From: Escherichia phage BabyEgg
Reading direction: 5' to 3' (one strand)
Sequence record: PP925846.1
DNA: 50,849 nt
A model generated the notes under the pieces. That model did not search any database. It saw only the letters and a program-made list of their open reading frames with translations, and had not been told where the DNA came from. Each line of letters opens with the position of its first letter. The first letter of the stretch is position 1. The translations under genes were made by a program, and so were the position numbers. This document shows, in pieces, positions 14,453 to 15,356 of this stretch.

Positions 14453-14477
14453 GGCGCTCGCTTGAGCGCCTTTTTTT
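14453..14477 (+). terminator. hairpin plus T7 between the two decoration-like genes
   Basis: GGCGCTCG ctt GAGCGCC followed by TTTTTTT. Confidence 0.55.
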
Positions 14478-14497
14478 ATTATGTAAGGAGAAATGAG

Positions 14498-15280
14498 ATG
14501 GCTAAAGATTACTCATCTGTTATGGGGCTTTCCTGTCCTGGATGCCTGGTTGATTCTACTCGCTACAACATTGATGGCACTGGAGTTTGCGGTTCTGAAT
14601 CCATCATTGCTGGAAAGGTTGTTTTCTTTAAAGAAAGAGTTGAAGGTTACAACATATTTGTTGATCACAAAGAGGGTGATGCTGTGGTTGCTGGTGTTGC
14701 CATAAGGAGCAATATCACGACAACGGTTAACGAGGAAGACGGATACTCTGACTATAAGGAAGGAGATTCTATCAACATTTTAACAAGAGGGGTTGTATGG
14801 TGCTTAACTCAAACGATTGAGTCTGCGCCTGAACATGGCGATCTTGTTTATGTTAACAATGATGGCTTTGTAGCAAGTAGTGATGGGGATGAAATCGTCG
14901 ATGGCTGGATTTTTACTGGTGACTTTTACAAGTTTGATGAAACAATGAACATAGTCGGAGTCAGAATAACGCCGCTTCATCATAGAAAATACCTTCTTAC
15001 TGGTGCGATCATTGAGGCCGAAAATGGTTATGTAGAGGGAACAGAAACAATTGACAACGTTCAGCTAAAAGTAACCGTTGTTCCAACATGGGCTGACGAC
15101 AAAACGGGGCAGTGGACGATTACAAACGAGCAAGATCCAAAGGTTGCAAGCGTTAGTCGCACTGGTCTTGTAGTTCCTACTGGAGTAGGTGGTCATGTTA
15201 ATGTTAACTGGACTGCAAACGACGGTTCTGGAGTTGCTGATCAGTTTGACATAGTGTTCAGGAAAACAGTAGGCACTTAA
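14498..15280 (+). CDS. head decoration-like protein with C-terminal Ig-like domain
   Basis: paralogue of 13937-14446 with extra C-terminal beta-rich segment (VQLKVTVVPTWADDKTGQWTITNEQDPKVASVSRTGLVVPTG). Confidence 0.5.
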   Translation: MAKDYSSVMGLSCPGCLVDSTRYNIDGTGVCGSESIIAGKVVFFKERVEGYNIFVDHKEGDAVVAGVAIRSNITTTVNEEDGYSDYKEGDSINILTRGVVWCLTQTIESAPEHGDLVYVNNDGFVASSDGDEIVDGWIFTGDFYKFDETMNIVGVRITPLHHRKYLLTGAIIEAENGYVEGTETIDNVQLKVTVVPTWADDKTGQWTITNEQDPKVASVSRTGLVVPTGVGGHVNVNWTANDGSGVADQFDIVFRKTVGT

Positions 15281-15299
15281 TGAATACCACAAAATAGAT

Positions 15300-15327
15300 T
15301 TGCACCTTTAACAAAAAGTGCTATCAT
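15300..15327 (+). promoter_or_regulatory. sigma70-like promoter TTGCAC-16-TATCAT upstream of the major capsid gene
   Basis: read from sequence; an inverted partial motif copy lies in the spacer. Confidence 0.4.
15307..15324 (-). repeat. partial motif copy, inverted relative to the capsid gene
   Basis: TTAACAAAAAGTGCTAT on the plus strand. Confidence 0.6.
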
Positions 15328-15329
15328 GA

Positions 15330-15356
15330 GGCTGTTACTTGTTAACAGCCTTTTTT
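15330..15356 (+). terminator. stem-loop plus T6 in the capsid-gene leader
   Basis: GGCTGTTA cttgt TAACAGCC followed by TTTTTT, immediately before the capsid RBS. Confidence 0.45.

Follow-up and report, generated by a model that had tools for sequence, protein, structure and literature searches.

Predicted terminator hairpins adjoined by promoter-like elements in the head-gene block of Escherichia phage BabyEgg

The genome of Escherichia phage BabyEgg (PP925846.1; all 50,849 nucleotides were analyzed and are referred to below as the window) contains, within its block of head genes, three hairpins followed by runs of T: one between two cement/decoration genes, one ahead of the major capsid protein (MCP) gene and one behind it. 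We examined these elements computationally with regard to their structure, their conservation among relatives and the promoter-like sequences that adjoin them. All three were found on the + (coding) strand where the original prediction had placed them, and its description of the decoration-like genes around the first hairpin as paralogues also held, as the two proteins are 32% identical (E = 6e-15) and both contain PF22758. The hairpins are designated H1, H2 and H3 and are listed below with the surrounding genes, ribosome-binding sites (RBS) and promoter-like elements.

13937-14446, +, cement/decoration gene A (169 aa; PF22758 Phage_cement, E = 2e-23; coding sequence as in phage MatMar)
14421-14449, +, P_H1, promoter-like element (TTGAAG, 17-nt spacer, TAAAAT); its -10 overlaps the stop codon of cement gene A
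14451-14477, +, H1, terminator hairpin and T7 (stem 14451-14472, GC core 14453-14470, GCTT loop)
14485-14490, +, RBS of cement gene B (AAGGAG)
14498-15280, +, cement/decoration paralogue B (260 aa; PF22758 and a C-terminal Ig-like domain, PF02368 Big_2)
15300-15327, +, P_MCP, predicted capsid promoter (-35 TTGCAC at 15300-15305, 16-bp spacer, TG at 15319-15320, -10 TATCAT at 15322-15327)
15307-15324, copy of a dispersed repeat (TTTAACAAAAAGTGCTAT, reverse orientation) that forms the spacer and TG of P_MCP
15328-15356, +, H2, hairpin and T6 (stem 15328-15352, 10 bp, loop CTTGT, -12.7 kcal/mol)
15334, +, predicted start of the capsid mRNA (G15334, 7-8 nt past the -10 and after a pyrimidine; placed by promoter geometry only)
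15359-15363, +, capsid RBS (AGGAG)
15371-16345, +, MCP gene (324 aa, ATG at 15371; PF09950 Major_capside, E = 2e-53; coding sequence as in MatMar)
16328-16356, +, P_H3, promoter-like element (TTGAAA, 17-nt spacer, TAACAT); its -35 lies within the last capsid codons
16357-16386, +, H3, terminator hairpin and TTTTTATTT (stem 16357-16377, 9 bp)
16401-16667, +, DUF7444 gene (88 aa; transferred from MatMar, with a profile match; RBS GGAG at 16389-16392)

All three hairpins lie between genes, in the same direction as these, and their stem energies range from -12.7 to -15.4 kcal/mol. H1 (AAGGCGCTC-GCTT-GAGCGCCTT, then T7) has a stem of 9 bp, 6 of them GC, and a 4-nt loop; its T run occupies 14471-14477, and the site lies between the stop of cement gene A (14446) and the RBS of cement gene B. 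Folded in context, it reached -17.4 kcal/mol (z = -4.0 against 200 dinucleotide shuffles, none of which was as good). H2 (GAGGCTGTTA-CTTGT-TAACAGCCTT, then T6) has 10 bp, 4 of them GC, and a 5-nt loop, and its T run (15351-15356) ends 3 nt ahead of the capsid RBS. H3 (GGGGAGCCT-TAA-GGGTTCCCC, then T5AT3) has 9 bp, 6 of them GC, and a 3-nt loop, with a folding energy of -14.9 kcal/mol alone and -19.6 kcal/mol in context; its z-score, calculated in the same way, was -4.1, and again none of the 200 shuffles was as good. The distance from the preceding stop codon to the stem was 5 nt for H1 (cement gene A), 48 nt for H2 (cement gene B) and 12 nt for H3 (capsid). The properties by which intrinsic terminators are recognized, i.e., a GC-rich stem of ~5-14 bp, a loop of 3-8 nt, a tract with at least five U in eight positions and a location behind a stop codon, were found in the window, and compensatory changes were seen in relatives.

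A first, permissive terminator scan returned 109 sites, many of them within genes or with long loops, and only compact, intergenic, co-directional sites were kept. About 21 strong compact co-directional sites with a hairpin and T run occur genome-wide, essentially only between genes. Nine of these are located in the late structural block (10720, 14451, 15328, 16357, 18996, 19722, 23046, 25181 and 28842). Between 8000 and 22000, there were 29 terminator-like sites versus 13.8 +/- 3.7 in shuffles. The head block is the densest cluster of such terminators, yet not their only location. A further strong hairpin, GGGGCGC-TTAT-GCGCCCC at 16673-16690 (-16.8 kcal/mol, z = -4.3), was observed 3' of the DUF7444 gene. 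In this phage it lies inside the next open reading frame (ORF; 16651-17133) and has no T run on the + strand; at the equivalent position, a genuine terminator complete with a T run is found in T1, TLS (T36B) and G29-2.

Terminators had already been annotated at the corresponding sites in related phages. The GenBank record of T1 (AY216660) contains rho-independent terminators at the orthologous positions 14237-14269 (H1), 15095-15121 (H2) and 16107-16137 (H3). In the re-annotation of phage TLS, T34, T35 and T36A correspond to the H1, H2 and H3 sites, respectively, and in phage G29-2 ARNold terminators follow gene A and the capsid gene. By our own count, the T1 record has 20 terminator features, and T1-like phages reportedly carry 18-21 of them. 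The T1 late region is described as consisting of terminator-flanked 'transcriptons' (Roberts et al. 2004, as cited in PMC11447400). The architecture in T1 and TLS is the same, including, in T1, a promoter directly before the capsid-proximal terminator. The stem sequences are different in a compensatory manner, nothing essential differs, and the terminators are predictions there as they are here. Because they were annotated in T1 and TLS, their detection in BabyEgg is a rediscovery of predicted features. In the T1 and TLS records, no promoter is annotated beside the first or the third terminator, and neither a transcription start within a stem nor the use of the TLS repeat DR7 as the spacer of the capsid promoter is noted. 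What is added here is modest: a promoter-like element, with its -10 and TTG, directly before each hairpin, and a link to the repeat.

Conservation was analyzed in 78 IMG/VR loci around capsid homologues (54-96% protein identity) together with T1. At the H1 site, a hairpin whose next 8 nt include 5-7 T was found in nearly every one of the 78 loci, and its stem had at least 12 different sequences (for example, GGCGCTC, GGCCGGA, GCCGTTC, GGCTCC, GGCACTC, GCCACTC, GGGATTACC, GGAGCC, GGGGC and GGGGACTATCC). Similarly, every relative had a hairpin at the H3 site, with T at 6-8 of the 8 positions that follow; here, too, at least 12 variants of the stem were seen. Energies of the H1 and H3 hairpins across lineages ranged from -8 to -17 kcal/mol. 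In MAFFT alignments, 84.8% of the H2 stem cells were paired, with changes on both sides in 6 of 10 pairs and none of 500 shuffles as high, and controls with a slid register gave 25-64%. For H3, 78.4% of cells were paired, 6 of 9 pairs had changes on both sides, and again no shuffle out of 500 was as high. These percentages are underestimates because MAFFT misaligned some 3' arms (L008 and L031 in alignment A1; L039-L050 in A2), and folding of the individual sequences provides cleaner evidence of conservation than the paired-cell counts. The stems vary and their pairing is kept, which argues for selection on structure, and at H1 and H3 on the U tract as well. All lineages whose capsid protein is at least 76% identical have retained the H2 stem. 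The U tract of H2 has 6 residues in this phage, T1, L003, L023 and L033 and varies from 0 to 6 overall; termination at H2 is therefore lineage-specific, unlike that at H1 and H3.

These data also bear on whether the hairpins are mainly elements of RNA stability or processing, i.e., exonuclease barriers at the 3' ends left by read-through and cleavage, or RNase III-type sites, that would set half-lives rather than polymerase flux. The H2 stem covaries even in lineages with only 0-3 U after it, and GC dyads without U tracts occur near the -10 of many early promoters of both this phage and T1, which speaks for such a role. However, 5-8 T are found in the next 8 nt at H1 and H3 essentially everywhere, and exonuclease protection needs none. 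We consider this explanation unlikely as the principal one, and it does not exclude termination, since terminated RNAs would end in the same hairpin. For H2, whose U tract is dispensable, a purely stabilizing or processing role may apply.

The predicted capsid promoter is conserved throughout the family. P_MCP was found in every relative, at MCP identities from 54% to 100%, and consists of an A-tract (~15288-15293 in this phage), TTG(C/A)(A/C)N, a 16-bp spacer and TGnTAT(C/T)(A/T/C)T. In 17 distinct relatives, the TTG, most of the spacer, TGCTAT and the final T of the -10 were invariant while the flanks diverge, and the promoter annotated in the T1 record at 15062-15089 is orthologous to P_MCP. 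The gap between the -10 and the H2 stem was 0-3 nt in all 17 variants; here, the -10 ends at 15327 and H2 begins at 15328. G15334, at which the capsid mRNA is predicted to start, and T15335 are invariant columns of the 17-sequence alignment within a stem whose other positions covary. Transcripts starting +5 to +9 past the -10 would lose 4-8 nt of the 5' arm and keep 0 to -3.5 kcal/mol of the -12.7 kcal/mol of H2. Because the predicted start lies inside the 5' arm, the primary capsid mRNA would neither terminate at H2 nor possess a leader hairpin. Two other candidates in this area were rejected. A 339-aa ORF from an ATG at 15326, which would cross H2, starts within the -10 hexamer, lacks an RBS and is missing in relatives, and an antisense promoter reading into gene B from the reverse repeat at 15307-15324 would have a poor, unconserved -10 (TATTCA; TATACA in T1 and TATTGG in L011).

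It had been suggested in the original prediction that H2 may stabilize the capsid mRNA as a leader stem-loop, which would guard it from 5'-end-dependent decay. The location of H2 between a conserved promoter and the capsid RBS, and its retention where the U tract has been lost, are consistent with this idea. Leader stabilizers of the ompA or T4 gene 32 type have a complete hairpin near the 5' end, whereas with the predicted start only the remnant mentioned above would be left. In addition, a branch of Klebsiella phages has the same promoter and no hairpin. A stabilizing leader is thus very unlikely, and this part of the original prediction was not upheld.

Promoter-like elements were also found at the other two hairpins. 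The -10 of P_H1 ends 1 nt ahead of the H1 stem, and the pattern TTGnnn-17-TAnnnT beside H1 recurs in many E. coli-phage lineages, T1 included. The -10 of P_H3 ends at the base of H3, and in all E. coli-phage lineages TTGnnn and TAnnAT are separated by exactly 17 bp, with the H3 stem beginning 0-3 nt further on. This spacing is constant even though the C-terminal extension of the capsid protein (LKKAV, LVKG, LVVG, LAVSE or none) and the position of the stop codon vary, and even though the intergenic spacer has 5, 6, 9 or 0 nt. For example, an extra codon is compensated by a spacer shorter by 3 nt, and in lineages without the C-terminal extension the TTG is provided by another Leu codon, located 18 nt upstream, and the -10 comes right after the stop. 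That the P_H3 spacing survived both coding and intergenic indels has hardly any explanation other than selection for promoter geometry. Among the 21 terminators of the window, 4 (H1, H2, H3 and 28842) have TTG-16..18-TAnnnT ending 0-5 nt before the GC stem, compared with a background of 0.49% of positions (binomial P = 3e-6). Most of the others have a -10-like element after them instead (for example, 8513, 23047, 25184 and 36866).

Because the -10 ends 0-3 nt before each hairpin, the predicted start would fall inside the 5' arm of the stem in all three cases. When H1 and H3 were truncated at predicted starts (+5 to +9), the H3 remnant was at most -2.2 kcal/mol, and that of H1 was -5.5 kcal/mol at +7 and up to -10.4 kcal/mol at +5. 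The remnant stems of H1, H2 and H3 are no longer adjacent to the U tract. T1-like phages encode no RNA polymerase and must therefore use host sigma-70 signals.

We consider it rather probable that H1, H2 and H3 are Rho-independent terminators for the host RNA polymerase, each embedded in the stretch that is transcribed first from a sigma-70-type promoter. The structures, their covarying conservation, and the promoter geometry and its conservation are observed directly; termination and its efficiency, promoter activity and the start sites are predicted from them. The hairpins would divide the head block into units, with the genes up to protease and cement gene A in one, followed by cement gene B, the capsid gene and the connector genes. 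A polymerase arriving from upstream would transcribe the whole stem and U tract, and a fraction would terminate there, in which case the terminated upstream mRNAs would gain a protective 3' hairpin. A polymerase starting at the local promoter would begin inside the 5' arm, so that the stem could not form and the transcript would continue into the next gene. The capsid gene would then lie between a strong promoter of its own (A-tract, TTGCAC, 16-bp spacer, TGcTATCAT) and H3. Transcription from P_MCP to H3 may yield an abundant monocistronic capsid mRNA of ~1.03 kb, with the neighbors expressed at other levels. Some late terminators must leak, since essential genes are located behind terminators without promoters; for example, the RBS of the tape-measure gene directly follows the terminator at 19722, which has no promoter. 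This supports metering. The proposal that terminators meter capsid and decoration mRNAs to different levels is plausible and was partly supported, as it fits the anatomy, the covarying conservation and the T1, G29-2 and TLS annotations. With a promoter-like element at each hairpin, mRNA levels would depend on termination combined with re-initiation rather than on attenuation alone.

Several observations weigh against this model. P_H1 is missing in several lineages (L004-L012, L017, L025 and L035). The number of promoter-like elements in the region was not above that in shuffles (24 vs 17.8 +/- 4.1), and the A/T richness of terminator flanks would by itself account for some -10-like hexamers. 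The predicted starts (G14456, G15334 and ~16361-16363) were placed by spacing rules. The U tract of H2 is weak or absent in many lineages (3 U in L008 and L030, 2 in L025 and 0 in L038), and as the hairpin is retained there, termination is not its only conserved role. In the Klebsiella-phage branch (L040-L080, ~2880-3000), which has neither the Ig-domain cement gene B nor H2, the order is cement gene A, a terminator (GGGGCTTCGGCCCC and T5), an A-tract, TTGACG-16-TGaTATTCT and the capsid gene; the terminator precedes the promoter, and the nested layout is therefore not obligatory. Finally, the searchable literature yielded neither RNA 5' or 3' ends nor coverage data for T1-like phages, and the sole RNA-seq paper found that mentioned Drexlerviridae had sequenced a T5-like phage. 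A comparison of the two branches points to an insertion of gene B in the E. coli-phage branch, with an ancestral terminator on one side and the capsid promoter on the other, and to an origin of H2 downstream of that promoter.

Similar arrangements are known in other phages. In phage T7, the partial terminator T-phi after capsid gene 10, together with a dedicated strong promoter, makes the capsid mRNA the most abundant late message. The likeness is in a terminator right after the major capsid gene and a strong promoter before it; the difference is that T7 relies on a polymerase of its own and on class III promoters. In phiX174, mRNA levels are stepped down by a series of weak terminators, TJ, TF and TG, with 59-80% of transcription passing each of them, and an overlapping pA-TH element 'resets' the transcriptional current (Logel and Jaschke, bioRxiv 10.1101/2020.03.05.979765). 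Partial intrinsic terminators between structural genes and a terminator overlapping a promoter are thus known in phiX174 and are predicted here. However, phiX174 is an unrelated single-stranded DNA microvirus, and its terminator efficiencies are measured values. Also, unlike in phiX174, the overlap in T1-like phages is systematic at three consecutive sites, with the -10 ahead of the stem. The overlap of promoter and terminator at pA-TH confounded the coverage-based RNA-seq estimate (bioRxiv 10.1101/2020.03.05.979765). Uniform RNA coverage across the hairpins, which had been put forward as an outcome that would refute metering, is confounded likewise because a promoter-like element adjoins each of them.

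The spacer of P_MCP is also a copy of an 18-21-nt repeat (ATAGCACnnnTTGnTAAAA) with ~20 copies in the window; 25 matches were found with at most 3 mismatches, versus 6.8 +/- 2.7 expected. This repeat has been reported in TLS, T1, Rtp and Rogue1 as a direct repeat with no function assigned, and the copy in P_MCP corresponds to TLS DR7 (negative strand, abutting T35). Its core is an imperfect palindrome, TAGCA-N5-TGYTA. A hexamer (T/C)AnnnT occurs 19-21 nt, mostly exactly 20 nt, downstream of the ATAGCACnnnTTGnTAAA repeat (TLS 'DR') in 16 of 19 window copies and in 18 of 23 copies in T1 (L083), against a background of 10%. This spacing places the repeat at -50 to -33 (center ~-41.5) of ~15 early/middle promoters that have no -35. 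The following are the copies of the 18-nt repeat concerned and those located in late genes.

730, 2221, 3399, 4830, 6171, 10689, 30097, 37388, 39905, 40944, 44326, 46493, 47170, 49099 and 50183, 18-nt repeat copies
15307-15324, late copy in the P_MCP spacer
19056-19073, late copy directly 5' of the tail chaperone RBS
25234-25251, late copy overlapping the RBS of the J-like gene
35820-35837, late copy directly 5' of the tail-fibre RBS

The late copies thus differ from the others in position or are oppositely oriented. Matching late positions were found in T1 (15069, 18833, 34902 and 25021), and the 7-kb loci of the Klebsiella-phage branch have one repeat copy each. The positions at early/middle promoters suggest an activator site, and those at late genes suit an operator rather than an activator site. 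Together, these patterns suggest a dimeric regulator that would activate early/middle promoters and occlude late ones through predicted binding to the repeat. A candidate for the putative repeat binder is the protein encoded at 36901-37377 (- strand), which showed weak matches to Cro/YdaS-type helix-turn-helix (HTH) domains, below Pfam cut-offs. For the T1 orthologue of this protein, the annotation gives similarity to the P22 C2 repressor, and a repeat copy (37388-37405) lies inside the divergent promoter region (37378-37462) of the HTH protein gene. Besides the repeat, many early promoters have a short GC dyad without a U tract that brackets or flanks the -10, such as GGGGT-N7-TATAGT-N-ACCCC in T1. 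Such dyads were seen at 3409-3444, 2240-2262, 46465-46500 and 37415-37435 and, in T1 (L083), at 1468-1500 and 2287-2320, among others. A conserved leader, CATCGA(A/C)AACGA, is present between these early GC-dyad promoters and the RBS.

A repeat in a promoter spacer recalls the lambda PR'-QBE-tR' system, as the lambda Q-binding element (QBE) sits in the promoter spacer and a terminator follows. By analogy, the terminators might be fully efficient by default and be overridden late by a phage antiterminator loading at the 18-nt-repeat promoters. Nine terminators in series in the late block, some with essential genes and no promoter behind them, and a conserved, protein-binding-like sequence in the P_MCP spacer with a terminator immediately after it are in line with this scheme. 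However, tR' lies ~200 nt downstream in lambda, while here the terminator overlaps the start site and so does not follow a promoter-proximal pause. A Q-like gene was not found, and ~15 repeat copies at -50 to -33 (mostly at ~-41.5) of early/middle promoters are typical of an activator and not of Q-type loading. Leaky termination, for which phiX174 provides a precedent, suffices without an additional factor, and antitermination is accordingly very improbable. Most improbable of all is a role of the palindromes as DNA, either as protein sites or as cruciforms affecting promoter opening, with RNA structure incidental: all three dyads overlap the promoter-melting and initial transcribed region, and GC-rich discriminator sequences can modulate open-complex stability, but stems that are completely different between lineages and yet paired point to selection on structure rather than to a sequence-specific protein site, and T runs occur only on the coding strand, where those of H1 and H3 are conserved.

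An extension of the nested-terminator model can be offered tentatively, in which the hairpins act as 'one-way' terminators nested in promoters and the capsid promoter is in addition gated by the putative factor binding the 18-nt repeat. If this is true, a gated P_MCP would be the early-to-late switch of the T1 family, and H2 would make capsid expression depend solely on it.

With regard to genome context, the 2.8 kb around the hairpins match Escherichia phage MatMar (Drexlerviridae, Tempevirinae, Warwickvirus) with 99.9% identity, and their identities to many other T1-like coliphages are 86-99.8%. As judged by annotation transfer, the window is a complete genome and is collinear with that of MatMar. 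The gene map was built by transferring coordinates from the MatMar annotation and is approximate outside the late region. The genes upstream of the cement genes, all placed by this transfer, are given below.

9124-10692, terminase large subunit
10761-12044, portal
12047-12793, head morphogenesis gene
12808-13920, protease/scaffold

Connector and tail genes are located downstream of the DUF7444 gene, and the T1 orthologue of cement gene A carries the annotation 'capsid decoration protein'. Searches of the whole window gave no Rfam match at or above the gathering score and no tRNA or tmRNA gene (ARAGORN). Cement gene A, cement gene B and the tail assembly chaperone gene have a near-identical block from RBS to start codon, AAGGAGAAAT-N3-5-ATGGCTAAA (13919-13948, 14480-14509 and 19071-19100, respectively), and their proteins begin with Met-Ala-Lys. 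This block may be a shared translation initiation region of high efficiency. A 63-nt tandem duplication (86% identity) was observed in the tail-fibre gene at 35190-35315 (- strand).

As the terminators were rediscovered, their detection in itself adds little, and the value of the analysis is in the comparative evidence. It indicates that terminators are under structural selection across Drexlerviridae, that those of the head block are fused to promoter-like elements with fixed geometry, and that the predicted capsid promoter has the enigmatic 21-nt repeat of the family at its center. At such composite promoter/terminator sites, terminator efficiency will not be evident from plain RNA-seq coverage. 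The compact terminator/promoter modules of ~50-90 bp could act as insulating parts in synthetic constructs. For the biology of the T1-like phages, the outcome is a transcription map of a classic phage family that is concrete enough to be tested.

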